NCBI GenBank assembly: GCA_013115125.1 | Contig: JABANN010000160.1 | Span: 1-58,969, forward strand | Direction: 5' to 3' | DNA: 58,969 bases | DNA from: Perkinsus olseni | Lineage: Eukaryota | Shown here: positions 1-57,759 of the stretch, in pieces | Position numbering within the stretch: the stretch's first letter is position 1 | How the letters are laid out: every line of letters starts with the position of its first letter | Position numbers and translations under genes: made by a program | The notes under the pieces: model-generated | What the model was told of the DNA's origin: nothing | Seen by the model: only the letters and a program-made list of their open reading frames with translations | Database searches by the model: none

Positions 1-224
1 CGCTTTCGTACAACATTGTCACTGCTACTTGCCGCGTCTTGAGTTACGTATAAGGAGTCACTGGTCCTACAGCGCCCGTTTCGGGGTTGCTTTCTAATTG
101 ATACTCCGAGAGCGTTGGCGTTTGCGGGTTTTAAACGCTAACACGTTAACCCATCATACCGGATACGTTAAAACGTTGCAAAGGATATTGCATATCTGGC
201 ATAATCTGGCTGGAACAGCGCACA

Positions 225-333
225 GTCGCAGATTTCAATTTTTTTCGAAATTTCCGCCTTCGCCGGAAATTTCCGAAACACTCTTCGGAAATTTGAATGA
301 AATTTCCGCCGCGGAAATCTATGTGCACCCATA
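225..333 (-). mobile_element. Candidate DNA-transposon terminus (hAT-like end with subterminal repeats)
   Basis: The minus strand starts TATGGGTGCACA, similar to TAGGGxTGCA-type hAT termini. It is followed by clustered AAATTTCCG/CGGAAATTT motifs in both orientations (248-318). No partner end was found. Confidence 0.35.
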
Positions 334-736
334 TAATATAACCGGCCAGTACAACTTACAGTATGTCAGTTGGATTTCGAAAGCAAATGTGAGCTCTCTC
401 GATGTTACGGAAAACAAGGTTCTTGAACGTCGCGCGGGGCAGGAAGTATCCCTAAGGGGTGAAGATTTGATTGATATAAATCGGTTGATGAAGGCTGATT
501 CAGCGAAGTACGATGCTATTTCTGACTTACGTCCCCGTGTGGGAAGGTGCCTTGGACTCCTAGGCTTGGAGGCCCCGCTTTACATTGTACATGTTATGAA
601 AACATGATGAAGTGCGTCTGATCGATGAGATCTGTCCACCCCGCCCTTGGGAGGAATGAGTGGCTGTGAACGTATCCGCGAACGTAGCCGTTTACTCTCA
701 CCGTTGCTCATCGTTGCTACTGTAGGGATTCTTGTT

Positions 737-758
737 ATGGTCTGAGACCATTGGTCTC
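737..758. repeat. 22-nt double-palindrome scar, 8-mer atggtctc
   Basis: atggtct+gagaccat+tggtctc. Confidence 0.85.
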
Positions 759-1513
759 AACAGTATCGTGGTATGAATAACCACCCCAGTTCGTCAGTAT
801 CGTCACAGAGCGGGAGTTCCGAGTTGCCTAGTCTCGAGGGGCCACTAAATCCCGATATCGATCAGTCCGACGAATTATTACATCGGTACACTATTTGTCT
901 TTTGTGTATCTAGTGAAGACAAGTGTTTTATATCGGCTGTTGTGTGTTCCCCATGGCTGTTTGGAAGAGATGCTACGGTTGGTGCGCTGGACAATAGGTG
1001 AGTCAACTGGTGTACCTTACGACATTCTTAGTAGGTTTCTTGCTCGAAATGCGAGTTATTATCCGTGTTAAGAGAAAGCCGTATGGGTTAAAGACGTTTG
1101 TGACTTGTGCATCTTGATCGTATCTTCATCTTCTCCGCTACCTTTTTTTGTAGCCTGGGGGAGGGGCCCCGGGCTCTAATGTGCCGCATGGAGGCTCACT
1201 GCGAAAATGGAAGACTGGGAAGCCGATTCCGCGATTGGTGCATCGGGCTCAAAATGGCACCAATCGACTCCTCTCGTCGAGCTGAGTATAATAGTGATGG
1301 AATTTTTCAAATATTATGCGCCATTTTGGGGCACTGATCGATTTAGTTTTTCAAATTAAAATTCCCGCGGATTTTACTGTGATCATGAGTTCAGCAGTCG
1401 GATTAGGGTAGTTGGTTGAGGTTGTGAGCTGTTGGTTGGGTGACCCGGGTTCGGTTCCGCTGCGGGACTCTTATGCGGAACTTCCGCATAAGAGTATACT
1501 ATGTATGATACTA

Positions 1514-2016
1514 CACCATTTCCAGACCTACTTAGTGAAACCCCAGAGCAAATTAGTAAAACTCCAGAGCAATTTAATCGACACGCGAGACGCATCCGGA
1601 TCGTCCCTCCTCCCTGCCCGGGGACTCCGGCCATGAGTGGCGGGAGATGCGGTAGGACGAAGGCAGAATACCTCCTGCCGTACTGTGATATGTTGCTCCG
1701 AGAAGGCGTTGAAGCAGTTACTATGCAACTTTGTATACGATACTTCAATCACGCCCAAACGTTTTATCCTCGTCGCTCAGCTATGGAAGGCATGTCAGTC
1801 GGAGCCCCAATTCGCGTGTTCAAGGATTAAACTTCAACCTGCGATCTGTAGGATACCGAGGGCTTACTTCATGTAGGCTGACGTTGTGAGTTTTCGTACT
1901 TGCTAGTGATTTCGTTGGGCTCTTTCATAAAATCAAATTGCTTTGGGCTTTTACTAATCTGGTCTGGGCTTTATTGAATTGCTTTGGGGTTTTACTAATT
2001 TGGTCTGGGAATGGTG
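1514..2016. mobile_element. Non-autonomous TIR element (MITE, Tc1/mariner-like) flanked by TA
   Basis: Left TA|CACCATTTCCAGACCTACTTAGTGAAACCCCAGAGCAA matches the reverse complement of the right end, TA|CACCATTCCCAGACCAAATTAGTAAAACCCCAAAGCAA. Both ends carry ~21-nt subterminal repeats. No transposase ORF. Confidence 0.8.
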
Positions 2017-2204
2017 TAGTTGAGCGGTCATGCTTCAAGTCTGTTATGCCGAAGGGTGTCGGTTCGATTTACACTATGGCAATCACTTCCTTTCGCGTAA
2101 GACCGACTTTCAAAGACCAAGAGTGCAACATTTAAAGATTTCTTGTGTGCAACATCACCATACTTCGCCTTGCACGCGCAAATATGGTTCAACGAATCCC
2201 ATCG

Positions 2205-2274
2205 GTTTAAACGAACTGTTGCACTACTTTCAGTTGTTAGTTTAAACGAACTGTTGCTCTATCTTCAGTTGTTA
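2205..2274. repeat. Tandem duplication, 2 x 35 nt
   Basis: gtttaaacgaactgttgcactactttcagttgtta followed by gtttaaacgaactgttgctctatcttcagttgtta. Confidence 0.9.
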
Positions 2275-2725
2275 TCGTTTTCGAATGCTAGCTTACGGTA
2301 AGCTCGCCACCAACATTCCAACCAACGCCAGGTCTTGTGGATGCTCTTTATTGATAGACTCGTTTTTCGCGGAACTGGATGCTGATGATCTCATTACTCA
2401 CACGGCACTCTCAAGGTAAGAAGAACATTCATCTCATCCGCAATGTCATCTTCGTACAGTTGCGAGTGCGGAGGCAGTGAAGCTCCCAACTGCTCTTCCT
2501 GCTCGCGTCATTATTGGCGCCTAAGCATCATAATTGTCGTTGTGTCGGTAGTGCTCCTCAGGAGAAGATGCAGGAGCTGATAGCTGCTCTCGTACTCGCA
2601 TCACTACTTGTCACTTTCAAGTTCTTAGGTCTCGAGGATTCATTCGTTTGCTGATCGTCATACATCTCACATGCTGGAGGAGGATTTGCGTTTCCGATTT
2701 GATTACTGGTATGTCTCCTGAGTAG

Positions 2726-2747
2726 ACTCTACAGTAGAGTCTCTACT
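2726..2747. repeat. 22-nt double-palindrome scar, 8-mer actctact (inside a GT..AG segment)
   Basis: actctac+agtagagt+ctctact. Confidence 0.85.
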
Positions 2748-4160
2748 CCTCTTGTTCGTTTGGCATTGATTACTCAGGTTCTTGGGATTTCCGTACAGAT
2801 ACAGATACAGATGCTCATGAGGAGAAGCACACTGCGACCAGTTCAGTCGCATCGTTGAAAACGTTCGCATAGAAGGTGTATGATCTTGGTCCTGATAATA
2901 TTGGTTATCTCTTAGAAATTCTAAGTTAGAATATGCTGAAGGTGATATTAGTCGTGTATCAATAGTGCTGAAACGATATCTCTCCAGCAATGAACTCAAG
3001 CTTCTGTATATTTTCCCGTAAAAGAATTGTTTTATGTTGAGTTGGTGGTTTGGGATGTACAGTATTGTACGAAACAGTAAAATGCGTCAATCTGCACAAT
3101 ACTACACAAAGAGGGACAGCAATAGATGTTTCCATAGCGTAATCCGTTATCTCGTAGCTGATATACAGAATTACCGTTTCTTTTCATTTTTGCTGCATGG
3201 AGCTCCCAAACGACTTGCCGATTCGCCCCAAATGCCGTAAATGGGGTTCATGGGAAAGGTGATGAGGAAAGGTTATCTCCTATAAAATTTGAACGATGTC
3301 GTAGGATTCAAAGAAGATTTTTCTGTTGGCTGGATCGGGCTTTCCCAAACGCGGTACGAAACACTTGAGTAACATATATATTTATTATTGGATTTCTAGG
3401 TACCTCAAAGATTACTGTGGCAGGCCGCCACTGGCAGTGGCAGCACATAGTCGCTTGGATGACTTGGAAAACAATCGGACCGAGGTAGGTTGGTTTTGTT
3501 GGTTTAGTATTAGACTGATACAAGGTTCGGCGCTGAAGATCCTTCTGGGGGAAAAGTTGCCGCTGTTTCGTTCATCGCTAACGAGTTGTCCGCCGCAATC
3601 TGGGTTATGAATGCCGACTACCCCGAACGGGTTCCGTGGAGAAATGTGAATGATCTACGCGGACGCGTGAATGGTAACCCAGCCGAAAGACAACAGTATT
3701 TGGTAAGCATTGGGTGTGTATGCAATTGGTTTATGGTCTTTCGTAGGCTTGGGAGGTGGCGTGGAACCATATTAGAAATGCGCATTTCGAGCGTTCTCCT
3801 GTTAACACTGGAGTTCAACCGCACCCACGTGGCCGGTTGATAAGCAAAGGATGATAAGATATCTAGGCAGTACAATGTGGGTAAGCAACAATTGGGTTAC
3901 TCTCTTTCATTTGAATTCTTCCACCAATAGAGCCGAATCTTCATTATGAGCTTAGGTTCGGGAATAGGAAGGCGAATTATACTCATATTGTAGGTAACCT
4001 CAGAAGTCTCGTGATTATTCTGCGTTCAGATAAAAAAATCGTCTCTGATATTGCTGCCGTTTCATTGAGAACCTGGCTCGATATTCGAGAACATACATCG
4101 TGGGGGAGGTCGTCGCTCATGTTATTTTGTTGGTGGACTGGAGAATCTATTGATGATAAA

Positions 4161-4221
4161 TATCGTAGTAAGAAGCGATATAGACTATATCGCTTCTTAC
4201 TACGATACTATATCATATAGT
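4161..4221. repeat. Long double-hairpin scar, 8-mer gatatagt
   Basis: Perfect 23-bp arms around the single base 4184 (4161-4207), then actatatc+atatagt (4207-4221). Confidence 0.9.
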
Positions 4222-4796
4222 TGAAGCTTTTATCACGCAGGCGTGCACCGTCAAGCCATGACTGTCGCTCGCCTATTAAGATTATGGCCTGTGTGCCGTC
4301 TCGTCTCATGATTTCCTTATTGCTTTTACCGCTTTACCGTTCACGAAGAGCGTTAGAGATATTTACAAGAGGAGAACATAACCAATTAGAAGATATCAGA
4401 AAACCGACTCTTTACAACAGGGTTTGGGACATACTCTTCTTGGGCGATCCGGTTTTATATGGATACCACGTTGGAAATGTCCTTTTTTCAGTGCATCATG
4501 GGGTTCTTCCGAGGTTGGCTATAATTTGATAATATCGCTTCAGGTTTAAATTCTGCTTCAAATTTACGGAGACGTCTATTCAATGACGAGGAAATCGACG
4601 ATGCCCCAAGCAAATAACGTAGCTTTTGCCTTATTTTGTTATAATTCTGTATATTTTGTAGAATCGTATATTTCGTATTGAGGTACTGTTGAGTTGTTGT
4701 GTTTTGGGGAGTATTGTGATTCTGTCTTATTCTCCAGTTGGCCTCGTCTACTATTGGCATTAAGGCCTCCTGTTTCATCTGAAGAAGCGAAATTGA

Positions 4797-4894
4797 GTGA
4801 TGAATCATCACTGATGATGTTCTTCGTCAGACTTGCACTAATAATGTTAGTCTAACACGTACAGGTAATGGGACCACGACTCGTGGTCCACGAG
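4797..4894. repeat. Two 22-nt scars (4797-4818 gtgatgat; 4873-4894 accacgag)
   Basis: gtgatga+atcatcac+tgatgat; accacga+ctcgtggt+ccacgag. Confidence 0.85.
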
Positions 4895-5705
4895 GAGTTA
4901 TTGGATTTGTTGAGAGGGGTCCAAAAATATGATAGTGGGAAATGGATACCTTTATGATGGAAACTTCAACGACTTGGTCAAGATTGTGGACGCGTCATGT
5001 TTCAGCCGTGTCATTCAACCTGTTGGAAGTCCTATGTCTCTGGCAGACAATCTTGAGAATGATCCTGCTCTGGCTGAATCCGCTAGGAACGATTTTCCAT
5101 TGCCTTTGCGGCTCACTTCGACGACGAACAGAATGAGATTAAGCTTGATTATCTGTTCGACATACAGTATGCCAACGCACTACTCTGCAATCGATACTCG
5201 TACCTGTATGCGTTCTTGCTCTAGGCCGAGGACAGATATTCAGCAGCTATTTCTCCAATGCGGTGGCCTCTCTGAAATCACAACGGTGGTACGCGATGCA
5301 AACCCGGCCACCATACGAGCCGCTCGCTCTGTATTCGCCGAGCACTGTTCGGTCACGGTGCCACAAGAGGGATAGTATCCGCGATATTACCGCCGGATTG
5401 ATGCCTGCTTGATTCTCAAGCACCTCTGTTGGCATGAGCGAAGGCTTCACAGTGCACAGGTGTAGCATACACCGTGTAGGTGGCATCGTCGAGAATCCAA
5501 CAAAAGAGCAAAGCTTTCGGCTGCCGAAATTCGGAAGCCGATCAAGATCAGCTGCGAGAGATCACGCGGGAGATCACTACGATTCACTTGCAGGCATGCC
5601 ATGTTCCTGTTGACCCCCTCGAGGTCCTCCTTTCAGGGCTGGAAGTCCCCGTATGACACAGCGTTAGACTTTTAGTCTTAGTAAGATGCTATTGGACTGC
5701 GCGAG

Positions 5706-5902
5706 ACTTTGACTCAAAGTCTTTGAGTCATAACCTTATTTTCCGTGGTCGAGGTGCCAGACACCACTGCTGGAGCGTCGGTTCCAAGAGTACAAACAAC
5801 CCGTAAATCTCTAGCATGGAACCTCAACAATCATACCGAGTTCGCTCGTAGCGACTCGCTCCGTGCCGCAGCGCCGTTGTGTGGCTGCCAGCCACTGGCT
5901 GG
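5706..5902. repeat. Two 22-nt scars (5706-5727 actttgag; 5881-5902 gtggctgg)
   Basis: actttga+ctcaaagt+ctttgag; gtggctg+ccagccac+tggctgg. Confidence 0.85.
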
Positions 5903-8069
5903 TGGCGACGGTCCCTGACCACACAGCACATAAGCTATCTGTCCTCATATCTTAGCCTAGCTATTTCCATTTATTAATGATGATGTACTCTCAATAATTA
6001 AGACCTAATATCAGTCTCTTGAGAAGTCTCTGGTACTTGAGTTCACCATGAGTGGTAACAATGTCTTTGCCTAGCGTCATGTGAGCCTACTATCATATTG
6101 ATGGACGATTTTCTTCCTATCATTCGTCTACTCCAGCTATGGACAGTCCATAATGAACTTCCTATCTTGCGTGTTGTACGGTAGCACAAATGACATGGTC
6201 TCTCATCATAAGGACTCCATAACACTTGGCAAGCATAAGAGTCTTATGACGGTCGCGCGTGGCGACGCGCCATTGGCGAGTCCATTGTCAGCGACGTTTC
6301 AACCAGGAAGGCTGCCAATGGCTATTCGACGAATAGGCTCTGAGCACTGTGCTCATAATATGAGTCATATTGCAGAACAGGGGACCCCACGCTTGCTCAG
6401 CGCGTCAAGAATCTTGACTCAAGAGGGACTCGAAACTCAAACGGACCCGACAGGAAAGAGACGTTAGCTACTGGTAAGGGGCCAACTTAGGCAGCCTCTT
6501 CTCTCTTCGACTTGCGATTCTTGCGCCTGAGTGGCAAAACAATTCCACCAACATATTCGCCGGTTTTGGGAATTATGCTAGACGGCGTCTACTAGACGTT
6601 TATAGACTATAACCGAACAGAAACGCGATCGAGTTTGAATAATAAACTCAATGAACACGCTCGCTGGCCACGACAACGGTACTCGACGTACATTCTATAA
6701 ACGACAGCGTTGTAGTTAAATGGAAACGCACTCGGAGTTCGGTGGCACATCCGACCAAACAATAACCAGCGCGCTGCTCCTGCCAATCACTGCTATGTCG
6801 TTCCGTCAGAAACGAACCCACACGAGCTAGTCCTATCGTGAAACGCCCGGCAGTACTCGGTGGCCTTTTCCATCTGCTCCTTCACCCATCGATTCTCCTC
6901 CTGTTTGAACTCCTCGACATTAGAGGCGGGGAAAGCACCTTGCCTGAGGAGACGGAGCTACATTAGCACGCATTGCACATAACAAGGAATCTAGAGTGTG
7001 AGGCACAAACTGTGAGCTGAAGTTCGATTCGATTATTCGAACCCGGCTCGGCCAGGAGAACCCGGGATCTCTCAGGCTGGGCGGAGTCGAGGTGAGTCTT
7101 ATTCTTGCCAATAGTTACACTCATATTCATACTGTGATGATATTATGAATGGTGACCTCATGGTTTTGCACTCTATCATTGCACAGGTATGCTGTGTGAA
7201 GACTATTACATATATAATGATTGTAGTTCGTTAGATACAGTACCAAGTTGATGCTTTCAACTGAACTGATCCATACGGACAACGAAATCAACTCAATCGT
7301 CACCTACCTTGCATACACCGCTACTGCCAAGCTATTACTACACATATTGAGGCCGACCCAGTCACTTCGAAAATACAAGATAGAGGTTGATTCTTATCCG
7401 ATTCGAATGGAAGCAGACTACTTCTACTTCAAGGGGATTATATCTATGTATGATTTATCCTGACTTCGTGTTCTATTCCACGCGTGTCCCCGTCATTACC
7501 AGCGTCCACGTATCTTCTGGTTCTCCAACTCCCAGCTGGGCTCGCCAGACATAAAGTAGCGATCTGAAAGCAGAGAGAACCCCGTTCTCTGTGATGGTTC
7601 TACCGAACCATCACAGTCTCTTAAGTCGCAGAGAACATGTAGAAGCGCGATGGCGCAGAGATGTATTCACGCAGATTCAGTGATGAGCTTCTTTCAGTCA
7701 AGTAATCCAGAAACTTAGAATCGCATTTTAGGCGTTCAAATCAATTCGAGAATCGCCTCCCGAGTTTCACGAACCTCGATTTCCCTCAGAAGCGCCGCAA
7801 TAGTGGAATGCCGCCGATGCCACTAGTGACCATTAAGCAAGGTAGTTCTATTGTAGACAGAACTCCAGTGGAGTGATGGTGGATTACATCAAGCTACGGC
7901 ACGGGGCTTTGCGAGACAGTTGATGAAATGCAAGTACAGCGAAACCATCCAGCCAAAACTCACCAGGATAGCCGATACTCACTAAATCGCGCCGAAATAA
8001 GGTGTGAAACGCGCCATTTAGGGAGTGCTCAGACCTCACGACCCACTAGCAGGCTTGTGTCTTCGAATA

Positions 8070-8401
8070 TTGAGATGAAACATGGAGGGATAGCTTTTTG
8101 AAAGACGCTCTCTCCACTGGTGTACCGCATTAGATCAGATGCAAAGTTGTAGATGTAGTTCCCGAGTAAAAGTTGGTATTTTGAGGCGCAATTTTAAGCC
8201 GTGTATGCTAAGAATTTGTGGAGAAAATTTTTTACGACTTTTCGAGTTCTCACTAACTATGAAGAGTTAGGCTCTGAAACTTGGAAGTTATATCCTGGGA
8301 AGCATAAGAATAAACCTCCTTGAGTTGCAGTTCCGTACTCGTCCAGGTGACACTGCACGAGTCGAAAAACCGGATATGCTAAGAATTTGTGGAGGGGTGT
8401 A
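8070..8401 (-). mobile_element. Orphan DNA-transposon end
   Basis: The minus strand begins TA|CACCCCTCCACAAATTCTTAGCATA. The 20-mer tatgctaagaatttgtggag occurs twice (~8204 and ~8375), like inner and outer transposase-binding repeats. The region is AT-rich and non-coding. Confidence 0.5.
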
Positions 8402-8702
8402 GGACTTGGACGAACGTCCGGAGGTTCTGACTGACTCGACTCGCTGTAGAAGACCTAGGCAAGGCAGGCCCTACTCGGGACAGGACGATCAGACTGACGC
8501 CCTCACTAGTGCCATTGAGACGTGTTACACGTCAAGTGTATTTTTCGTATGTATATCGGAAATGATTCTTCCCACAATTCAGTGTGATCCGCTGGTCAAT
8601 TTCTCTCGTTCAACTTTATTGGCTCCCTGGTGTTCAGTGCCGTATACTCAATCGACCTTCGACAAACGTCTTCGTACAGTTTCGTTGTTTGTTCTATAAA
8701 CC

Positions 8703-11700
8703 ATGCCCGATGATATTGCGATGGCCACCAATGGCGTTAATGGAGACTATGATGAACCAACAGTGCAAGCAGTGGCTGAGTATATAAGAGAGGCCGTACA
8801 GGAGACTGAAAGGGCACTGCTGGATGAGGGCAAGAGGACCCCTGTAGAGCGATGGGTAGTGTTATGGTGGCAACTCGTGTTCACCGGCCTATTACTCATC
8901 AAGGTGTTCGATCGCATTGCTGGTACAAATCAGTAGGATCGCCTGTGCTCGACTGATGTCTGATAACGGTGATGTGCCCGCCAAACTTGTTCTTACGCAG
9001 TCAGTGTTAATCGTTTTAAATCTCCGGTAGCCACCATCTTCTTTGGAACTGGTCTGTATTGTTTCAGTCGCTCTCTGGTTCGTCTTTGACTTAACTCTCG
9101 CTTATCTCCGGGCAGGTGTATTCTTCATCATATTCACTCTCGCCCTATACTAAAGATGTAGTTCTCTGTTCTCAGGTTGATTTGGTTGATAGCAATAAGT
9201 GGCTGTCAAGCGCCTTGCTGGACGCCAAATTCATCAGCCCTCTTCGGGAAGCATCCCTTGGCACGAAGTCTCGGGGGTTCGGTAGATTTATAAGTGGCCT
9301 GGTGAGCTGACTAAGTTGTCATCGTGAGAGCCAGGAGCGGTATTTCTGTAGGCGTTCCTGATATCATCAGTGCTGCGAGGATTCGGCCAGGTGGTCTTCC
9401 AGGACAACCCATGTGAGTGGACGGGCGCCAGAGGCCGTGGTCAGCTCCGCTCGGTGCAGAACTGAGAGAAGCGTCTCGCTTCATCGCAACAGTCGTGACG
9501 GTATATCCATCTCGCACATTCGTCGGCATCTTGTTGCTATTATGTAGTTTCGGGTAGGAATGCTTAGCGTGACTGAATATGACCAGAGACAAAGCGTGGA
9601 GCCTAACGTGTTTTCCGAGGGAACGGAGTGACATTGAGTTGCAGTTAGTGACGGAGTTCATTAGTGAAATTTTCCTGGTTTCGGCGGGATCTCGGAACAT
9701 TATTCCTGAGATCTGGATGACTTCCTCAATATGAGCGTTTGCATTCTCGCGAACGATCCGTGAAAACTAGCCATTGGGCGTTTCTCAAGGTGCCATTGTT
9801 CTTTCATCAGGGACGGGCGCCTTTGTATGTGTTGCTGGCGGTTTACCTCACTGGCCGACAGCTATAATGGGCATCCTAGGATGTAAGGATCGATACGCCC
9901 TTACTCCCTACCTAGAGTAACGCGATCAGGTACCATCACTACTGTCTTTCCCTTGCTTGTGCAGCCACCGGAAACGAGAGCGTAGGTGGGCGGACCCTCT
10001 GTTCGCTCGCTCGCTTTTTGTTTTCTCGGAATGCCTGTTGTGATCAGGTTGGTCGCCAGTGGGCTGTACGGCTTCAACGGAGTACTGTTGGGATGGGGAT
10101 ATGCGACATTTGACAATAACATCCAGCAGGCTGATACATGTAGGATCAGGCCGTAGTGGCTGTGATGGGGATTTTCACTCTCAGTTGCGTCGGGTATCAT
10201 CGCGCTGCTGAGGGCCCTGCCAGCATTGCTCTTCCTTGGGGTAGTAACGGGAGAGATCTCGTTGATTTTACCGATCGGAGGGAGTCTTTCCTGATTTAGC
10301 ATGCTCTGCAGGAGAGGACGCGTCGTCCATGGAATTCGCCATAGTCGCCTTCGTGACGCTGCGGGGCTTGTGTATTGTGTTGGCCAACTCTGCGCTCCGC
10401 GCTTGCGCTTTTGGATTACCGTTTCGAGTCCTGTCTCTCAGATACTGACTGGCATCCTGCATGTCGTTATTAGTAGAAGCTTCACTAAGGCCACGAGGAT
10501 ACCTCCCTTAACTTGGCCGTAAATTGAAAGCCTCTGCTCGGCAGTGCGACAGAATCTCGGATAGGTATAACATCGCTTTGCTTATGTGGATGGCATGTGC
10601 TACACTCTCTACAAACTATGGTAATGGGGCGAGAGGGGAGAGCTGGTTGAAGCCCTTCTCAGAGGGGTTGTGGGAATGTGAATATTCCTAGCATGATGAA
10701 AGTGATTTTATTCGAACGAATTTTTCCTTTTCCTAGTGCTAGGGTCAATGATTCTGTATCATCGACTAGACCACGCTGTTGGAATGACCTCAAAAGTTGA
10801 GTCATCATTGTCCTGCTTTGATGGGTGTGGCTCTCCATCCGAATTTTTATTGCTTCGCCCTGTTGACTCGACCAATTTGAGTACACTGTTAGCTGATGGA
10901 TGGTCTTCACTTGGTGAGGTGTCCAGTGGCCGCTTGTCAGATTGTCTGACTCAGATACGCTTTTCACTAATGCCGCTACCCCGAGAGCTGTGGCGGGTGA
11001 CTACACAGTAGCTTGGTTCTTCGAAGCCTGGTTGAGAGGAGTCTCCCAGGTTGTCTTCAGTAATACTCGGGGCCCTTCACATGCATGGGAACTGGCCAAT
11101 GCTTGCGATGAAATTCTCATGTCTTCATCACCATGATCGTGGATTCTATTTCATCGTGAAATTCCCGTTCCATGTGGCAGGTCCGGATCTATGGTCGGGC
11201 GTAGTGCTGTTGATCGGCATTCTCTTCGGGTGAGTGTTGGTCCATGTCTTCTGTACGCGGTAGCGTCGTCACGTTCAGGTCGCCTTATTCTGTATTTCTC
11301 ACGGCGTACGGTGCCCTCATTGGGCTCCTAACCGGCATGGGCATCGGGCTCGACTTCCGCGGTATGCTTGATAGTGGTTTGGTAATCCGGTTCACGTCCG
11401 CTGATGCCATTCCGATCATCTATGTCAGGTCTGCTATAACCCAGTGCTAGTCGCGCTGTCTCTGGGCGGCTTTTATGTGGCACCCAGTTTGAAGGGGTTC
11501 ATTCTCATGACCTTCGGCTGCATGCTGTCGGTTATCGCCTTTCAGGGCGTGGTCAATTTACTGGTAATTTTTCGGCATTTTCGTGGCTGGATGATGTTAT
11601 TGCGGTCAGGTCCTGCCGAACGGAGGGCCGGCGTTGACTGCCCCGTTTTGTATTACGGTTACTATTCTGTTTGGCGCGATGTCCTGGGATTTCATCGACG

Positions 11701-12279
11701 GCGTAAGCGAAGAGTTGAGAGCGATGAATGTAATTCCACTGCAGTTACCCGTCTTGTTCCCACGCCAGCTCACATGCACTGAGAGGCACTGGGCGCTGAA
11801 GAGCCGCACTCAACGTGCTATCCGGGTTGTGCGGGAACTGGAGAGCGGCAGCGATATGAATACGCTGGTTTCATCGGTAGGGCAGCGGACGGCGGGGTCG
11901 CGTGGGCTGTGACGGCGACCGTATTTTGAGGTTGATGTTGGCTTTTGACAGGATGTTGTCCGGGACCTTGGTCGAGCTGTGTCGATGAAAGTTCAGGAGT
12001 TGCTACCTGTCTCCAGTACTATCACTTCTGTGTGCTTTACTACTCGCATCCGTCCCTGGTCAGGTATGAGGCGATCGAGCGAGGACGGGTATGCAGAAAC
12101 ACTGCTGTCTAAAGCGGGCCTCCATCATTGGCATCAGTAGCGAAGGGAGGGGTGTCCCACGTGTGGCACTCTCGTTATTCAGTCATATGGTTACATATGG
12201 CGAGGAGGGCAAGGACCATGGGGATTACTCCCTTCAGAAGGTCGCCGCAATAGCGGAGTATGCTGCTAAATACGAGTAG
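8703..12279 (+). CDS. Urea transporter (UT/SLC14 family), multi-exon
   Basis: Exons encode VASGLYGFNGVLLGWGYATF (~10052), WFFEAWLRGVSQVVFSN (~11013), PDLWSGVVLLIGILF, SAITQCLVALSLGGFYV and PAERRAGVDCP-adjacent hydrophobic segments. These include the UT signature motifs. Starts MPDDIAM and ends AEYAAKYE*. Confidence 0.88.
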
Positions 12280-12611
12280 GGCTGACGCAGGGTTACATCT
12301 TCGTGTTTGAGGATGGTCATCAACAGGCTCTTGGTCGTTCAACAATTTGATGGTCAGGTTGCTGAGGACTGTGTTCCTTCGATGCTGTGAATTCGGTAGT
12401 GAGTGTAGCCTCATGGACTCGATATTAGTCGGGCTGAATGCCGCTGATGGTTTCCCGGCCAGTCTTAAGGAGCAGGTGAGGAGGCAGTGAAACTCCAGTG
12501 GGGAAATTTCGCTATCGTCGCGAATGAGATTATCATCACTGGCATTACTATCAGTTCTAAATTCAGAGGAGTATGGCCGATCCACGCTGCCAATTTTAAC
12601 GCGAGAAACCA

Positions 12612-12633
12612 TAGGTTACTAACCTAAGGTTAG
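12612..12633. repeat. 22-nt scar, 8-mer taggttag
   Basis: taggtta+ctaaccta+aggttag. Confidence 0.85.
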
Positions 12634-13825
12634 TCGAATATCTCGACGGATAGCACCCAGCGTTGAGCGGTTATGGCTGTATTACTAACCGTGATACTTT
12701 CTGCTGTTTGATGATCCTCGTCTTCATGCGGGCACGGCTGCCCAGGCATTTCTGTACTATATGAACTTCACAAGTTGATGACTTGACAAAGCGTACCCAA
12801 GTGATCACTCCTGGGTCTGAAATGAGGGCTCTGATCATGACACCCGACCATACGTTAACTCCGTATGTCTCGCGGCGGATCGGAATCGCCCAGTCTTCCC
12901 GGAAGCCCGGGAAGACTCCTCCACAAGAGAATGTGGGTTACTTCTTCAAAAGCGCCGCCGATTGCCACGCCAGCCGTGGAGCCGTTGGATGCATACCTTT
13001 TAGCAGACTAGATCCGGTATGATATCGGCGAAATCGTTGCTCTGAGGTCCCAGTGGCCTCGCTGATGGTAAGGGCAACAGCCTTCGTCTATCGGAACCTC
13101 AGGAGTTTGGCGGTGGGTTGGTTTCCTGGACCTTTCGGGGTCTGGCTGGTTTAATCAATTACAACTCGGTTATTGATCGGAAAGCCGATCATGAGGTTTT
13201 CCTAGGACGCCTGAGACAGGCGGCACAATTCATGAACCGCCAGCGGTCATGAAGGCAGGTCTCGGGTTATTAGGACCGAAGTGACTCCGACGGAGTCAGT
13301 GCCGCTGAAGCATATTCTCGGAGTTTAATTTAGTCTTCGGAAAGCGATGGCTGACAGGCCTCAAATCACAATCCCGCGGGTGATTGACTCGATTAATGGC
13401 AGCGTCAGATATCAGTGAGTGCGGTCAGTACAGCTCGGTCCTCCATTGATCGCAATTTTTACCACTCGAAGGAGGCCTACATCGAAGCTGAAACCTGTGA
13501 GAAAAGGGACAACAGTCTTTATCCCATTCCCATTACTCAAGACCCTAGGCTTCCGCTGAAAGCCGCGCAGGCTTGGAATCTGCCGCGGGGCATTTTTCCT
13601 CTTGAGCAGGCAGTGGAAAGTTGGCATCTGGTGGTGGAGTTCTACGAGAAAGCTGCTGCTTGAAGTTGGTTCACCTCCACTATCTGCTATCCATCATGGA
13701 TGATCCATGCTTTGCGAATGAATGCACGGAGCGTGACGTTTTTCGCATGCTCTTAAAGTTCCGAGCCCAGCATGCCGAGTGAATGAGAGCCCTTCCTGAA
13801 CCTGAGGGCGTCGAAAGGCCTGCGC

Positions 13826-13859
13826 CGGTCTGTCAGACCGGGTCTGACCGGCCCGGTCA
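13826..13859. repeat. 22-nt scar, 8-mer cggtctga, plus an overlapping third odd palindrome
   Basis: cggtctg+tcagaccg+ggtctga (13826-13847); tgaccgg-c-ccggtca centred at 13852. Confidence 0.85.
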
Positions 13860-15339
13860 AATCGTGCTGGAACTCGCGATAACGAAAATCATCTTCACCA
13901 AAAAATCGCAGAGAGAATGAGTTACTTGCTACCTTACGTGGACTCTCGTGTTCTTCTCAGGCCGTTCTGTCCGCTCGACGAGTCTGCGGACCCGAGGAAG
14001 CCTCTGAGATCGGCATCATATTCGGCGGTCGTGACTTTGATAACAAGCCTTTAGAGGGAATCATTTCCGACTGTGCTACCATGGCAGTGAACGACTCAGT
14101 TTAACACGTTGCGGCGTATAGCTGCGTCACTCCCTTGGCTTGACCACTTTCCTCGTCCATTCTCTATTTATACATCATCCGATCTGTAGCATGTATATCG
14201 CTGTGTTTTAGCTCTATGTACGAAGCGGTGTACCCGTCGAGGACGGGATCGTAGTGGTAGTGCTATGGATATTCTAACGTTGTTCTTTCTATATTGATAT
14301 ATATCCTGACGAAGGGATGACAGCTCCGCTTGGTCAAGAGTGGGTAGATTCGTATTGGTAGGGGTAGGCATTAGGTTGATGTTCTCGGGTTACCATTGAA
14401 TTCGCAAGTGTGTGGTGTTGCATCACAGTAATTAGTGAGAGGGTGGGGGCTCATCTTCGAAGTTGAGTCTAAGGGTGAGATTGACGAGGGCGCTGCAGCT
14501 CCTCGGGATATGCTGCCCCTGCGCCTAACAGCGGTCTAGGTACTGCTGCCACGCTGGATTGAATGTTTGGGTAAATGTGGAAGATATCGTGTCTAAGAGA
14601 TAGCACCACTTCCCGCGGATAAGCTCCACCATAAGTGGCTAATGCGCTCGGACTGTAATTGTTACGCAGTCTCGAACCATGTCACATTGGTTGGCAGCTG
14701 ACATTCTACGCGTCGCGTCAGGGTCATGGGGCGCATCGCCGCCGTCAGGAACACGCCAAAGCATCCCTTTGCTGTATCACAGTTTTCCATGTCCTGGCGA
14801 AAAGAATCTGACCATTGGCGCGGTTCTTGGCAGCAGCGGGAATCTCGGAGCTCCGGCTGGCATGACTGGCGGCAGAGAGGCACTGAAAAGTGGGATGCTG
14901 ATAGAGGAGGGAGATATCCTGAGTATGGCCGGATTCGGGATAGTGCTGATAGATACTATCCAATATCGAATTCATAGAAATGAAGTATTTATGAAATGTA
15001 TGGTATAGACTTTGGAATAAAATGGAAAAAGTGAAACCGATGAAATAATTCGGTATATAAAGAAGAAAGATCGTTGAATTTATGCTATTTGTGATTCGTT
15101 CATAGTTGTCCATTTGTCGAAGCTCGATGTAAATTTTTAAGATTTATGAGAAATGCAATTTCAGTAAACATCTCCTGAATAGGGAGGCAATGCCGCACTG
15201 CCAATGCGTCTTCGAGCATAAGCATGCAGGTATCAGATCAGCGGGGACCAGCGGTATGAGTACAAAAGTGGCAGATCGGCTCCCTCATGGTAGTAGTCGC
15301 TCTTGTTGAGGTCTCACTGCTAGTAGTGGTGGTTTTAGG

Positions 15340-18300
15340 GAGAGCAATACTCGACAACCACGCTGGGATGAAGATAGGAGTTCTAGAGGAGGGTACTGGG
15401 AGGGAAATGTAGTACGAGACTGGAGGCAGATTGCGAAGGTTTCCTCTCTGGCAAGCGCAACCCTAGTCGCAGGCCTCATCGTACATTTCCTAGGGCCCCT
15501 AGGCTAGGGGCACACATCAATATTCTGTGCATTTCTTGGGATCCATCGCGAGAACTCCTAATGTTTCTCCAGGATACCACCGGTAACTACAATCAAGGTG
15601 CAGCCGACTGGAGTGGAGCGACTGGGCGATGGGCTGGCGGTGAGGGAGCCGCGGCGAACCGTATGGCTGCTACGGAGGTGATACAGATGCTGTTTCCCGC
15701 GTATTCGGTCAAGTGTGTGGCTGTTCAGAGTGGAGGTGGGGAGAATTCGTCTGTCCGATCGCGTGCACGGTCACGGTCTCGATCTCGCTCTAGTCCTAGG
15801 TGAGATCTTGCGCTGCTCTATGGGCATCATTGGGGGCGAAACTGGAGCTAGCGCGTCAGATACACGCGACAGAGGAGTCGTAGTCCCGATTACTCGTATG
15901 ATCAGCGGGATACCACACGATCGAGTGAAGAGGAGGGCTCGTCGGAGCCGGAGGAGAGCGAGTCCATGTCTCCAGAGGGGATGGTAATACGTCGCTTGGG
16001 CTTAGCTCGAGTCTTTCACCGGTGCTGTTGTCTCTCGGAAAATTCAATCTGGGTGGGAAGTGGTCCCTAGGATCGCTCAAGGATCCGCAGGTGCTCTGAC
16101 TGAGTGGATTTGTCGATGGATCGTCTATAGGTTGTTCGGAGGGAGGCTGGCGGGCTGCTGGAGTTCGACGCCCCCTGCACTGTTAAAGGCGTGGAGTCCT
16201 TCAGTGAAGAGGAGAAGAGAAAGTAGTAGTGATGGTGGGAAAAATCTGTAGAGAGAAGATCCTTCATCCCCAGGCTGGGTCGAATAACTACATGGGAGGA
16301 AGCAGTCGAGCGCGGCATTCTGCTGCAGAGTGTGGTCAACGCCCTTGAGGCCTCCGGGGTGAGTTCCTCCGTCCCGTTGTTGGACGAGTGGGATAGCTAT
16401 TGTGATTCCATCAGGCTGCCCGACCCACCCCGATCCAGCAGCATGCGATTCCTGTTATAGCCGGAGGCGTGGATGTGGTAGCAAGCGCTCAGACTGGCAC
16501 GGGTAAAAACAGTCAGTAGAGGATACCTCTTGGAGCCAGTTGTGCTACTATCAGGGAAGAGCCTAGCGTTCATTGCTCCCATAGTCTCGAAGATTGGTAA
16601 AATGTCTTCGACTGTTCCTCGACCCTTCTTTCCTGGGAGGTAAGACATCGTGTCAAACGATTCGTACGAACAACGCCAAGGACTGGCCCGAAGCATGACC
16701 GCGGTCGAGTCCCTCGATGGTCGACGTTGCGCGCTGTAGCAGTCGATTTCTGAAGAAGTGGGTGATCTTGGGATTGTGGTTCAGGATGGCCCAGGCTTCT
16801 CCGCTGTGTATGGTGTTGGCCCCGACCAGAGAGCTGGCGATGCAATTGGTGAAAGACTTCGAGGTGAAGTGCCCTGCTGTTGGTGGAAGCTCGTGGATTC
16901 TTCGTTCGTCAGTCATGCTCTGTGAGTCTGGAAAAGGGAGAGATGTGTCGCACGAAGGCTGCTTATGGCGGGGAGACCGCATCGCGTCAGGTGAGGTGGA
17001 ATGTTCTGAAACGCGGGATGCCTCCGTTGCCCGTAGGCTGATCGCATCTGTGCAGAACAGCTCGATGTATTGGTTGCAACCCCGGGGAGACTTCTCGAGT
17101 TCAACGAGACGGGGAGGGTAATGGTGGCAATTTCCTCGTCCTCGTGGCTTGGTGATGAGTCTGCAGGTGTCCCTGGGGTACGTCAAGTTCCTCGTGTTGG
17201 ACGAGGCTGACCAGATGCTCTCGATGGGGCTTGAGGTGAGGAGTGCTATCCGTTTGTGATATATATTTTACTTCGAGATTCGTTGATAGAAAATAGGCGT
17301 CTACTGAATCAGTGTGCGGCGTCTCGGGTGTCAACTGTCTCCTTCTTCAGGCGTATGTTAATAATATATTAATGGAGACCGACCTGACGGAACCCAACGG
17401 CCGCCAGACACTTCTGTTCTCCGCGACCATTGACAATCCTAATTTAAAGCCATGGCTCGAGGGAGAGGTACGGCCTTCACAACTCCCTGCTGTTCCTGAT
17501 ATCCTCAGCCAGACCCTTCTCCGGAAGCAGCGGGTCACCATTGCCGTTGGACGAGGGCGAGGAGCTGGCGGTGCTGGAGGAGGAATGCGATGCAATGTTG
17601 CCCAGTCTGTTCGGGTGTTGAGATCGGACCAGGCCAAAGACCAAGCGCTTTGGGAAGATCTAGCGAAGCTCGACATTGCCAGCGGAGAGCAGGTCAGTAC
17701 TCCCAAGTTCGAAAGTCAAGGAAGATTCTGGAAATAGTTCGACTGATGGCTGTGTCGCCTGGGCGATCAATACAGGAACGAACGCAGTTATCGGGACCGG
17801 GCTTCGCTCTTGCCGTTGGGAGGTGCTCGTGAGCCTCTACCGTTGATTCGGCGCGGTGTGCTGTCTCCGCCCTCGCACTTGCGTTGTTCTCTCAACTAAC
17901 CTTAGGCCATTATTTTCGTGTCATCTCGTGATCGAGGCAAGGACCTCCATAAGCGTATATGCGGAAGTGGGAAGCTGTGCTGCGGTCTATTACAGGGCAA
18001 GCAACTGCAGACTGTCCGGGAGGAGGTTGTCAGGAGGTGGGATGTGATAATTAGGGGCGGTTGTGGAGATGTTTCCCTATCTTCGGAGTTCCTCGGTCGT
18101 GGGTCGCGATGATTTGTTGAGCATCTTCTGGTGCTCTGGACCGAAGGCGGTCAGCCTCGGAGCTCCTTCGGACTATTTCAAAGCGACGTTGGAGTTGGAC
18201 AGTCACTCTGACATCAGCGGCTGATGTCAGAGTGACTGTCCAACCCCTGTGAAATTGACTCACTCAGCAAGGAACACATAAACTAACGCTGTAACGCTGT

Positions 18301-20480
18301 TAGGCTAATAGCGTTATCACTTCTGCGAGGGATTGATTCGCTACCAGAGTTTCCCTAATATAATATTTCCGAGCACATCACAGACGAGTATAATTCTATC
18401 ATTTTTCGTGCCTCGGGAGGTTCATCGATACTTTTCTCGCCTGGTGACCGAGGCTCGGAAGTTGCCCGCCGGAAATCATGCCACTGATGTTTCAGTGGGC
18501 AATCACCATGGCCACCGCGCTCGGTTCGCTGGATATCTGCTTCAGGGATATAGCGACGGAAGCAAACACGACCGAATGAAGGGAGGATTGATCCATGAGG
18601 ATGGACCTTCATATAACAGTATTGCTACCATCTTTCGGGCCACCAGTCGGTAGCGACTATGCCGTATGAAGTTCGGGACTTGAAGTATCTGCCCTTCATG
18701 CTGAACGAGGGGACTTCCTACTGGCATGATTTTCCCGGCGACGTTGAAAGTGGAACCCCGAATTAGTCGGAACAGGGGGGTATACGGTGCTGGGTGACCT
18801 CGTTTGGGCTTCTCACAACATCTATCTACTGCTTGGGGACACTCGGCCCGGAGGACTGGCGGGGTGTATGTTGAGTATGCCGACCAGCTATGCAAGGACC
18901 TTGCAACAACGCTTGGTGGGCCGTCATAAACTCCGGGGGGAACGTCGTTCCAGCCACGTCGTTTCAGTCCCTCTGAGAGATTCCCGCAGAGGTCGGCGGT
19001 TCTCTCGCCAGAGAGGGGGCTATCCGGGATCATCCGGTAGTTGCCCAGCTCGTCTACCGTCTCCGATCCCGTTAAAATTAGAGACGAGCAAGACTTTTTT
19101 CACTCGATAAGTTGACAAGGATGACGAGGAGCCGCTGGTGATTGACGTCGACCCCCGACCTCGACGGTCATTTCCGCCCATCCCCACCACTGTTTCCCGC
19201 CTCCCCTGACCAGCTTGGAGATAGCCAGACGGGTCCCCTCGTTGACAAGGCGATTGAGGCCTTCAGGGGCCGTCAGTACAATCAAGCTAGACTTTTTTCA
19301 CTCGATAAGATGCACGAAACCTCGAGCATGGTCGGGGTCTACCTACTCCTCACTGGGTTGAGGAATTCACGCGCGGTCGCGTTCGCGATGAACTGAATTA
19401 AGTTCCCCGTTCTCGGCAGTCTTTAACATATATCGGGATGCGTGGCATGTGATTCGTGGACCGTCGAAGGGAACCGAGCGCAATCCAGCTGTTCATCCTC
19501 ACGAGCGGGGCTTACTGTTAGCAATGATGCGTAACCCCGAGCTGTCGCTTATCCATCACATTCTTGATAGCAGTGTTGTTGGCGTTTCGTTCTCTTGGCT
19601 CCGGCGTTGCGTCCTAGGTGCCAACTAGAGTGTGTTGCGTCGGCGTAACGAGCCCGGGGACCCCCGGTTGCCGCCTGTCGTCTCTCCCGCAAGCGTTGTA
19701 GTTTCACTCACGGGGTGGCGTAGCTCGATAGTCTGCTCTTCACTTATAACTCTCCCTTGTTCAGATTCCGTGCCAACGAAGATCAAGTCCTGGTGTCGAC
19801 CAGCGTTGCAGCCAGAGGCCTGGACTTCCCAAATGTGACATTAGTAATTAATTACGATATGCCAGAGAGTAAGGCCAACAACATTTGCTCTGTGCGTCTT
19901 CCGATCGTTTTCGCGCCAGTGGACACTGTGAACTGCACTTACTATTTATGGTGTGCAGGTATTGAGACGTACACGCATCGGATCGGTCGGACGGGCCGCA
20001 TCGGTCACGAGGGCCGCGCTGTCGCCTACTACAATCCGGCAAGCAAGGACCGACGGATTGGTGAGGCCTTAATAAGCTTTCTGAGGAAATATAACCAACC
20101 GGTTAGCGAGGAGCTCGAGGCTGCTGTTCGGCCGAGACGGGTGAGGGGAACTGCCTGGACTCTCTTCGGTCAGCTCGTGGATGCCACAGGGATGCTTTTC
20201 TTGTTTCAGCACAACTTTAGAAGACAGTATCAAGGATATAGATCTGACCGTAGCGGACCAGGTGAGGAATGGTGGGATACGGAAGAGGGGATTTTTGCAC
20301 ATGTCGACCCAAGTTCAAAGAGCATACCAATTCCGCTATCATTCGTCAGGGCCTTCACCCTCTAGCGATCGGTGGAGTTATGGTAGTTCGAGACAGCTAG
20401 ATCGTTCGCAAGAGCGTAGTGGCCATCGCCGTCCCGAGAGGGATAGGTCGGATGGGTCGTCTCGGTACCGCTCATGGTGA
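15340..20480 (+). CDS. DEAD-box RNA helicase (Ded1/DDX3/Vasa-like), multi-exon, start uncertain
   Basis: Motifs: Q motif PTPIQQHAIP, motif I AQTGTGKS (split by an intron), Ia LAPTRELAMQ, Ib ATPGRL, II VLDEADQML, III LFSAT, IV AIIFVSS (17906-18036), V STSVAARGLDFPNV, VI YTHRIGRTGRIG. Both termini are R/S/G-rich. Confidence 0.92.
15489..15510. repeat. 22-nt scar, 8-mer cctagggg
   Basis: cctaggg+cccctagg+ctagggg. Confidence 0.85.
18194..18244. repeat. Perfect palindrome, 25-bp arms, 1-nt centre, in helicase intron
   Basis: gttggacagtcactctgacatcagc-g-gctgatgtcagagtgactgtccaac. Confidence 0.95.
19091..19309. repeat. 21-nt direct repeats flanking 177 nt in helicase intron
   Basis: agacttttttcactcgataag at 19091-19111 and 19289-19309. 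Confidence 0.85.
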
Positions 20481-20818
20481 TCGAGAGAGACTCCCGTGTA
20501 ACGATAAGGTTTCTACTGGTTCTGTTGGTTGTCGAGCTGCCCAGACACGAGATCTCCAACTTGTTTAGATTGTACTGGAGTCGGAAGCGAGTGGGTTACA
20601 CTCTCCCTTGTATTAACAATCTAGGGCTGGAGACGAAAGCAGGCCCTGAAAGGGCCTCCTCTCGAACCTGAGGAGATGTTATTCGCTCTGTGTTGCCCGT
20701 AGGGTTGCTGATGCCAAGACCCCCCTCATACGAATAAGTCTGCTCTGGGTGACTCTTATTAGAAGGAGCTAGTTTTCTACTTTGACGATTGGTATCCCAT
20801 TCTCTCGAACTGCTTGCT

Positions 20819-22483
20819 ATGGCGGATTCTCCACGGTTTACGGAGTTTGTCTCACGAGTCGCTGCGGACCCCCTAGCACGGCTGGTTGTCATCAGCAGCG
20901 GAGGGACTACGGTGGCCCTGGAACGTCGAACTGTGAGGTGAGCCCTTCTCGCCTGCACTCAACGAGAGATAATAGCATGGTTTTGAAAAAAAATCGGAAC
21001 TGAAGAATTTCTGGTCGCGGAGCTGAGATGTGTCGATGTTCATGTTTCGCTTCGTGTAGGTTTTTGGAAAATTTCTCGACGGGAAATAGGGGAGCGGGCA
21101 TGGCCGAGAGTTTCATCATGATGAATGAAGAACCGTCGTCCAGTAAATACTACGTGGTTTATTTCCATCGGAAAGGTGAGGGATGATTCTCGAGTTTTAT
21201 TGGCGAGATCCGATCCAACCAGGTGGCAGCTGCGCTATGCCTTTCGTTCGTCACCTCCCTGACGCAACGGAACAGCTGGAGTTGATGAGCACGGGAGATC
21301 AGGGTTTGCAGTTCGACTCCTATATACAGGTAACACAAGGCAAGACAGTTTGCGATGGCTGATTGTGTAGAGAATGATGGTGTTTTCAGGCTCGCTCTTC
21401 GTCAGACGTTTTAAGTCGCTATCTGCTTTGTGTGGAATTCTCTAGTGTCACTGAGTAAGATCCGCACCACGTCGCGCTCATCGCTGCTTCGACAACTCGA
21501 AATAGCACTACCGCCCAACCGGTGAGGGGATAGAGCCCCACTAGATAGCCAATGCCAAAGGCACATGCGCGCGCCACAAGTTGTGGCCCACAACAATGCA
21601 TGCACACGAATGAGAGATCTTATCGACTCTATACCGCTGCTTCGAGCAATATGAACTCTTTAGACGCTTCTTCCGCCCGGCCGCTTGGATCAGTGTATGG
21701 TTCGCTCGGTCTCCTGTGGACAGCTGTCCCCCGCGGAGCCGAAAGTGTCATTGGTTCAGTTGAACGCGGCACCGATGGTCATGCTAGCTGTTGTAGTTAC
21801 CTGAGTTCCCTTGAGAAGATCGCGAAGATTGTTAACCCCCTGGGCCCTCGGGCAGCACTAATACTAGCTGCTGCGGTATCCGACTTCTACGTGCCTCTCG
21901 ACCAAATGCCGGAGAATAAGATCCAGAGCGGCGCACATCAGGAAGACGGCCTCACGCTGCACCTCACGGGTGTTCCGAAAGTTCTGGGCCGCGTGAAGGG
22001 GACGTGGTGTCCGCAAGCGCTGGTCGGCCATTGGAGCTGCGACGTACGAGTCGAATCCTTCTCCTTGTAGGTCGTCTCGTTTAAGTTGGAGACCGAGCCT
22101 GACATACTTTTCGAGAAGGCTAGCGGGGCGATCGAGAAATACGGCGTTGATGCTGTGGTCGCGAACGTTTTGGAGGTAACGAGTTCGAGGACCCGGGGTC
22201 GATCCCGAGGCTCGGCATTATTCGTCCGAGACGCACTTGGCTCTGGCTGAATTTCTCTGTCGCTCAGTCGCGATACCGGAAGCTTTGGATAGTCCGCGGA
22301 GCAAAGAGCGTCGACACCTATCGTGATTACACGACGCGACTCATTACCAAGCCAGAATCTGAAGGTGATCTATCGGCTGTAGTCTGCTGTACAGCTACCT
22401 CCATCGTGTCAGATATCGAAGGGGTGCTAGTCAAAGCTCTCCAGGAACTTCATACTCATCATATACAGCGCGCTTCACAGTGA
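20819..22483 (+). CDS. PPCS: Phosphopantothenate--cysteine ligase (CoaB/PPCS), multi-exon
   Basis: LVVISSGGTTVALERRTVR, FLENFSTGNRGA, LILAAAVSDFYVP..MPENKIQS, VPKVL, VVSFKLETEPDIL, YGVDAVVANVLE; ends HIQRASQ*. Confidence 0.93.
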
Positions 22484-22659
22484 CTTTCTTTTATTCAACC
22501 TTCAGCCTCATCACGTCGGTTCTGCGTTGTGAGATTGGGGGTGGTTCATAGTACCACTAGATGCCATGGTTCCCACGTTGGTGCTGAGCTGGCGAGGTCG
22601 GGCTTATCCGATCTTCAGCACAAAGCCACTTGTTTTTTATCGTCGGTCATGTCGGCAGA

Positions 22660-28136: not shown

Positions 28137-28239
28137 TTTGAGACAGTTTGTGCATAGACTCTGCGCACAAAGTGTCTCAAACTGCCAGAACATTTGAAGC
28201 TCGACTCAAGCTCTATGCCATAGAGCTTGAGTCGAGCTT
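28137..28239. repeat. Long double-hairpin scar, 8-mer gcatagag
   Basis: Left: 22-bp arms with 3 mismatches centred at c28159, preceded by gcataga. Right: perfect 21-bp arms centred at c28218, followed by catagag. Confidence 0.9.
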
Positions 28240-57669: not shown

Positions 57670-57759
57670 CCCGCGCCCTGTAAACTGTTAACTCAGTTAA
57701 CAGGGCGCGGGTCGGGACAGGGCGGTTTACAGGGCGGGGGGGGGCAGTTAACTTAACTG
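57670..57759. repeat. Double-hairpin scar, 8-mer gttaactg, with patchwork templated filler
   Basis: gttaact-c-agttaac (centre 57694) and cagttaa-c-ttaactg (centre 57752). The filler between them consists of inverted copies of the left flank. Confidence 0.8.

Follow-up and report, generated by a model that had tools for sequence, protein, structure and literature searches.

The excision of hAT and Mutator-like elements (MULEs), like cleavage by Transib and RAG, forms hairpins on the flanking DNA that are then opened by host enzymes, as set out in the available excerpts of PMC5499845. The footprints of the hAT system Ac/Ds are the closest described counterparts of the locus presented here; in the portion of PMC5873905 drawn upon, they consist of palindromic P-nucleotide tracts centred on the complement of the base that adjoined the transposon. 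The same portion quotes palindrome arms of up to 20 nt for Ac/Ds in yeast and, for Candida, 28 footprint types that comprise short deletions and P tracts no longer than 3 nt. The introner elements of Amoebophrya, which is related to Perkinsus, are repeated intronic elements with 8–20-nt inverted repeats at the intron ends and 3–5-nt direct repeats (PMC7789003).

The DNA analysed here, hereafter the window, is the whole 58,969-nt (59-kb) contig JABANN010000160.1 of Perkinsus olseni (assembly GCA_013115125.1). A palindrome scan demonstrated that positions 4161–4183 (tatcgtagtaagaagcgatatag) are the exact reverse complement of positions 4185–4207 around the unpaired a4184, so that a reading made from the sequence alone, which had proposed a perfect 23-bp palindrome with this centre, was borne out. 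The palindrome (4161–4207) is 47 nt long, with 23-nt arms and a 1-nt centre; by arithmetic estimate, about 1e-9 palindromes with arms of this length are expected per 59 kb. A second perfect palindrome occupies positions 4207–4221, with 7-nt arms actatat (4207–4213) and atatagt (4215–4221) flanking c4214. The sequence-only reading had placed this second hairpin directly after the long arm; its sequence and coordinates were right, but its start was off by one, since a4207 is common to the long arm and the second palindrome (1-nt overlap).

Both palindromes yield one and the same 8-mer, GATATAGT (hereafter T), just as the first had been taken to predict for the second. They do so independently, the eight-base agreement being made up of six shared bases, ATATAG, and the two centres: a4184 is the complement of t8 on the right, and c4214 is the complement of t1 on the left. 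Given two palindromes, the chance of such agreement is about 1.5e-5 (arithmetic estimate). With rc denoting the reverse complement, positions 4162–4221 parse exactly as a 15-nt left flank + T[1-7] + rc(T) + rc(flank) + rc(T) + T[2-8] (Table 1). The 61 nt of 4161–4221 contain no mismatch, and the inferred net insertion at the site is 37 nt. Folded as single-stranded DNA, positions 4150–4235 gave z = -11 relative to shuffles, a value that does no more than restate the palindrome.

Table 1. Parts of the 4161–4221 locus and related scars elsewhere in the window; rc, reverse complement; T, inferred 8-bp target of the respective scar.
Feature	Coordinates	Strand	Remarks
Last 15 nt of the original left flank, atcgtagtaagaagc	4162..4176	+	Reverse complement of 4192-4206; template of the long palindromic tract
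T[1-7] = gatatag, left copy of the inferred 8-bp target-site duplication GATATAGT without its last base	4177..4183	+	6-nt overlap with the right copy, 4215-4221
First rc(T) = actatatc	4184..4191	+	a4184 is the palindrome centre (inferred hairpin tip), complement of t8
Inferred extended P-nucleotide tract, gcttcttactacgat, the 15 nt of reverse-complemented left flank	4192..4206	+	15-nt gap between the two 15-nt units
Second rc(T) = actatatc, inferred P tract of the right hairpin	4207..4214	+	a4207 is the junction, 0-1 nt microhomology; c4214 is the centre, complement of t1
T[2-8] = atatagt, right duplication copy without its first base	4215..4221	+	Original right flank (tgaagc...) from 4222
Sister uncollapsed scar in mirror orientation, T = GTTCCGCA	1454..1495	+	Short side 1454-1468 (1 mismatch); right palindrome with 14-nt arms, centre 1481
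Sister uncollapsed scar, T = GCGCTGAA	42466..42503	+	Short side 42466-42480 (1 mismatch); right palindrome with 11-nt arms, centre 42492
Scar with both tracts long, T = GCATAGAG	28137..28239	+	Degenerate palindrome centred on 28159, 15-nt filler, perfect palindrome centred on 28218
Uncollapsed scar, T = GTTAACTG	57687..57759	+	43 nt between the halves

Taken together, we read positions 4177–4221 as the footprint that a cut-and-paste DNA transposon, either a hAT element or a close mechanistic relative, left at its donor site when it excised, having earlier inserted at GATATAGT in non-coding DNA of P. olseni; we give this reading a probability of roughly 0.8. Two features of the site agree with it: i) the 8-bp duplication is present on both sides (gatatag and atatagt), and ii) each of the two centres, a4184 and c4214, is a single base complementary to the outer duplicated base. 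This combination of duplication length and 1-nt complementary centre fits hAT best, and Ac/Ds footprints in maize, Arabidopsis, budding yeast and Candida albicans likewise combine an 8-bp duplication, a complementary 1-nt centre and the possibility of long arms. The exact parse supports the proposal, made from the sequence beforehand, of one excision whose hairpins were opened about 23 and about 7 nt from their tips and joined without collapsing over the shared 8-mer. Judging from the reverse-complemented flank at 4192–4206, the left hairpin would have been cut 22–23 nt from its tip, and because the 61 nt carry no mismatch the excision is probably a recent, young event. Against the footprint reading, the window holds no element, terminal inverted repeat or transposase, its target 8-mers are only weakly hAT-like, and two long palindromes, centred on 18219 and 24618, stand without a partner.

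The locus is a rare, long variant of a scar that abounds in the window. Palindromes that have a 1-nt centre and arms of at least 7 nt number 70 in the window, compared with about 3.2 in ten first-order Markov simulations, whereas 0-nt and 2-nt centres remain at background (2 and 0 compared with about 2–3 simulated). The excess is highest at arm lengths of exactly 7 nt (n = 41) and 8 nt (n = 18). Over half of the centres (36/70) pair at a distance of exactly 7 nt, which yields 22-nt units of the form T[1-7]+rc(T)+T[2-8]. Counted at zero, one, two and three mismatches, these 22-nt scars number 18, 15, 17 and 29, against simulated means of 0, 0, 0.4 and 6.0 (five simulations); the window thus has 18 exact and 32 near-exact scars, or about one per kb. 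The 22-nt scars to which the long palindrome had been tied are thus real, with their 18 exact copies confined to length 8 with a 1-nt offset. When the 1-nt-offset form was scanned for duplication lengths of 4 to 12, only length 8 was enriched (18, with one case at length 7 and none at length 9), and a scan of the window for the zero-offset form T+rc(T)+T at lengths 5–12 returned no case. Direct repeats of 6-mers show a sole spike, at offset 14 (55 vs 11). The one scar with a length other than 8 is a single exact 7-bp form at 6352–6370 (6+7+6 = 19 nt).

A transposon-free origin would have a broken or stalled 3' end fold back and copy its own strand, by template switching or snap-back, into an inverted duplication. 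Fold-back synthesis is an established source of inverted duplications, and the lack of an element in the window agrees with it. Snap-back priming, however, needs a loop of several bases and gives no reason why centres should be exclusively 1 nt; it also leaves unaccounted for the second centre with the same 8-mer, the fixed length of 8 and the 6–7-nt direct duplication on both sides that underlies the offset-14 spike. We regard this origin as highly improbable, and give just as little credence to a hairpin selected for function, whether as a binding site for a protein, as part of an origin or terminator or as the precursor of a small RNA, or to an artefact of sequencing or assembly. A perfect 23-bp stem does fold very stably, as a functional hairpin might. 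Yet the roughly 70 palindromes have no common sequence, neither a 1-nt centre nor a flanking copy of the same 8-mer is needed for function, and no curated covariance model of Rfam matches the site. Artefacts, for their part, do not produce graded decay (zero to three mismatches) or nesting. Fold-back, functional hairpin and artefact are each contradicted by centres of 1 nt only, by an 8-mer common to both palindromes, by a length fixed at 8 and by graded decay in unrelated sequences.

A footprint left by the same hairpin chemistry in the hands of another superfamily with 8–9-bp duplications (Mutator-like, Merlin), or of a domesticated hairpin-forming nuclease, is a more serious competitor, though still an unlikely one. 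The MULE Muta1 combines flank hairpins with 8–9-bp duplications in the excerpted account of its excision (PMC5499845), and Merlin elements have 8–9-bp duplications, with Merlin-related ORFs that lack recognisable ends found in Perkinsus marinus (PMC8101967). The missing hAT element or transposase in the window and the weakly hAT-like target logo point the same way. Set against these are the scars themselves, which are strictly 8 bp (18 at 8, none at 9, one at 7) where MULE and Merlin duplications are commonly 9. The literature consulted describes no flank hairpin for Merlin, and Muta1 excision in yeast is more than 90% precise according to the same excerpts (PMC5499845); Muta1 shares its flank hairpins and 8–9-bp duplications with the window but differs both in this precision and in the window's lack of 9-bp scars. 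A 1-nt centre complementary to the outer base is, moreover, the documented signature of Ac/Ds in the part of PMC5873905 that was consulted.

Among the target 8-mers of the window, T occupies position 2 in 15 of 33 and A occupies position 7 in 12 of 33, with at most 0.22 bit of information per position. The hAT target consensus is nTnnnnAn, and the targets fit it only weakly; positions 2 and 7 of GATATAGT itself are A and G. No sequence is common to any two scars in the window, which indicates that they are built from local target DNA only, with no element-derived remnant.

RAG and Transib place their nicks precisely at the border and so produce even palindromes that lack a central base; Transib duplications are 5 bp long, and P tracts in V(D)J recombination typically span 1–4 nt. 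The likeness of the 4161–4221 locus to Transib products and V(D)J coding joints lies in the flank hairpin and in an off-centre opening that yields palindromic additions. Unlike what would be expected of RAG or Transib, the window shows no enrichment of 0-nt centres, and the 5-bp form is at background. The introners of Amoebophrya resemble the window in placing short inverted and direct repeats in non-coding DNA (PMC7789003), but the scars described here are unique, consist of local target DNA only, carry an 8-nt duplication and enclose no intervening element.

Even relative to Ac/Ds, the nearest described system, differences are apparent. In place of the variety of Ac/Ds footprints in Candida, at least as given in the consulted part of PMC5873905, the window is dominated by a uniform 22-nt scar that holds a complete inverted copy of the duplication (25/29 at no more than one mismatch). 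Arms of 23, 25 and 31 nt exceed the maximum quoted there for Ac/Ds in yeast, and the cut distances that the retained tracts would imply, 11–31 nt, lie far from the tip when compared with the Candida tracts of 3 nt or less. The scars of the window are also natural and inherited, at about one per kb and with no element nearby.

Drawing upon the anatomy of the site and upon published hAT biochemistry, a mechanism can be proposed for the footprint reading. An element would have inserted at the 8-bp target GATATAGT and later excised. Upon excision, the transposase would nick each flank one base inside the duplication; Hermes, as Zhou et al. reportedly found in 2004, makes its first nick 1 nt inside the flank. 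Joining of the flank 3' OH to the opposite strand would then seal the chromosome ends as hairpins, the tips of which would be the complements of the outermost duplicated bases (a4184 and c4214). Host nucleases would cut the hairpins beyond the tip, and unfolding would expose a palindromic, P-nucleotide 3' tract on each side. In the usual outcome, the tracts would anneal through rc(T), the 8 nt common to both, and the flaps would be removed; whatever the cut distances had been, the product would be the same 22-nt scar, T[1-7]+rc(T)+T[2-8]. At 4161–4221, the left tract of 22–23 nt would instead have been kept untrimmed and joined end to end to a right tract that stops exactly at the rc(T) boundary, the two overlapping by 1 nt at most.

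The window was scanned for scars of the form [T1-7 rc(T)] - gap - [rc(T) T2-8], a single mismatch being tolerated. Collapsed scars, in which the gap is -8, number 25, and uncollapsed scars number four, with gaps of 4, 5, 15 and 43; the 4161–4221 site is the one with a gap of 15. The gap-0 form, a 30-nt unit with two adjacent copies of rc(T), did not occur in the window scan. In the three simple uncollapsed scars, reverse-complementing the adjoining flank gives the extra bases. In the scar at 57687–57759, the 43-nt filler is a copy of the left flank, rearranged with a deletion, together with a run of 9–10 G, and looks like templated and untemplated repair synthesis. The scar in which both tracts are long has arms of about 22 nt at its degenerate palindrome (13/16 inner pairs) and perfect 21-nt arms at the other.

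The short side stops exactly at the rc(T) boundary in all four uncollapsed scars, which suggests, speculatively, a first annealing at rc(T) that proved abortive. One flap would be trimmed in it, the ends would dissociate, and a second, nearly homology-free join would follow; this second join would resemble end joining of the polymerase-theta type. If annealing was abortive in this manner, the retained tract lengths would record real cut distances. The palindromic tracts retained in the window measure 11, 14, 21, ~22, 22–23, 25 and 31 nt.

From the 4161–4221 site it had been anticipated that long palindromes with 1-nt centres and arms over 15 nt would have a partner centre with the same 8-mer within 100 nt. 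Within the window this held for 4184 and 28218 and failed for 18219 and 24618. With the threshold lowered to arms of at least 9 nt, five of seven palindromes outside the 22-nt scars had such a partner within 100 nt and two did not. The partner is exact for 4184, exact and 58 nt away for 57694, and contains one mismatch for 1481 and for 42492; that of 28218 is the degenerate long palindrome at 28159, 59 nt away. For the centres at 18219 (25-nt arms) and 24618 (31-nt arms), no partner was found within 400 nt even with errors allowed.

Two further observations concern the surroundings of the partnerless palindromes. The 31-nt-arm palindrome (24587–24649) abuts a tandem array at 24500–24585, which consists of about four head-to-tail copies of the 22-nt unit tccagcaccgcgttactcgtga; this unit is not scar-like. 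The 10-mer GAAATTGACT, which contains GAATTGACT, has only two exact copies in the window, at 18251–18260 and 24671–24680, and both lie just to the right of the partnerless palindromes. It could be a remnant of an element end; with one mismatch allowed, it has 5 matches against 4.5 expected, and the coincidence was judged likely to be chance.

At 13824–13859, one scar lies within another: an inner exact 22-nt scar with T = CGGTCTGA (13826–13847) interrupts an older outer scar with T = GCCGGTCA, and excising the inner 14 nt exactly restores the outer scar. This nesting implies repeated insertion and excision at one spot and, together with the spread of mismatches from zero to at least three, shows a long-running, repeated process. 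In successive 5-kb bins, scars with at most two mismatches number 8, 12, 9, 2, 1, 8, 1, 2, 2, 0, 1 and 4. They are thus strongly clustered, with 1–15000 and 25001–30000 rich and 15001–25000 and 30001–55000 poor, a distribution that could reflect exon exclusion, local hopping or both.

Searches for the element itself were carried out across the window. A strict search, for a perfect 8-bp duplication around inverted repeats matching at 10 of 12 bases and up to 8 kb apart, found none in the 59 kb. A relaxed search, for a 9-nt inverted repeat and a duplication with at most one mismatch, returned two weak candidates, near chance level, where about 0.3 are expected by arithmetic estimate; these, at 14497–17566 and 39706–42974, overlap exon matches and have unrelated ends, and were rejected. 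None of the 127 ORFs of at least 100 aa matched a transposase family in Pfam, and there are no dispersed repeats of at least 40 nt in the window other than the 22-nt tandem array. The absence of an element or transposase from a 59-kb window says little about the organism.

The excision chemistry proposed here is already known, and the 4161–4221 site is a clear natural example of it with an unusually long tract. The full-text literature searched, outside which most subscription journals fall, describes such scars neither in Perkinsus nor, at genome scale, anywhere else. Nor does it mention a density of about one scar per kb, a uniform 22-nt product with a whole inverted copy of the duplication, or the absence of an element across 59 kb. 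Extrapolating from the window, we tentatively suggest, at somewhat less than even odds, that the non-coding DNA of P. olseni is saturated with tens of thousands of uniform 22-nt scars (about 1/kb), an unreported archive of hAT-type events in which scars far outnumber surviving elements. According to this suggestion, hairpins would be cut 11–31 nt from the tip, and repair would normally proceed through annealing of the 8-nt inverted duplication instead of through an Artemis-like opening close to the tip and classical end joining.

Excision footprints are usually too short or too variable to be recognised, and the history of cut-and-paste transposition is therefore mostly invisible. In the window, every event seems to mark its site unmistakably, with a palindrome built from the target sequence, and the long form at 4161–4221 keeps the hairpin cut distance that collapsed scars have lost. 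Should the suggestion be true, the scars would serve as a clock and a map of past transposition, with clusters and nesting indicating local hopping, and the driver of excision would be either ordinary selfish elements or an excision activity retained by the host. Were the pattern genome-wide, transposition could be counted and dated, local hopping and target choice could be tested from sequence alone, and the hairpin-opening and end-joining pathway of perkinsids could be inferred in the same way. Perkinsids are the sister group of dinoflagellates, and P. olseni is a polyploid mollusc parasite. The scars would also read out double-strand-break repair in a lineage where such repair is unstudied. 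In practical terms, they are a large source of indels of at least 14 nt and of perfect palindromes, and in a polyploid parasite these can mislead assembly, alignment and the comparison of haplotypes.

The first 9 kb, which hold the 4161–4221 site and the highest scar density, contain only short ORFs in all frames, with no family match or convincing coding frame. A coding origin of the site was considered, given that ORFs 3915–4220 and 4221–4529 lie in one frame, and rejected, as these have no family match and the 37-nt insertion is not a multiple of three. An intron-free ORF at 25853–26431, of the N6-adenine methyltransferase family, is 99% identical to a P. olseni protein, and further ORFs are pieces of ordinary intron-split genes (RNB/DIS3, helicase, peptidase C13). 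An Rfam search of the whole window at gathering thresholds returned two tRNAs only, and neither Rfam nor tRNA scans placed anything at 4161–4221; the tRNA genes, Gly-GCC (50574–50646) and Leu-TAA (55931–56014), are on the minus strand.

Mapping of the P. chesapeaki DIS3 protein to 35477–49861 on the plus strand yielded about 24 exon matches. None of the five footprints in this DIS3-like span falls inside an exon match, and the exact scar at 35877–35898 is intronic; because the exon matches cover about 42% of the span by our own sum, this avoidance is only weakly significant. A 3.1-kb gap in the DIS3 match (39736–42841) holds a 374-aa ORF on the minus strand, at 41052–42173. As an element gene the ORF was rejected, with no Pfam match even at E = 5; its relatives are three P. 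olseni hypothetical proteins only, and its best Atlas score of 0.81 is not a usable lead. The ORF could represent a nested gene; alternatively, two genes may have been fused in the P. chesapeaki model.
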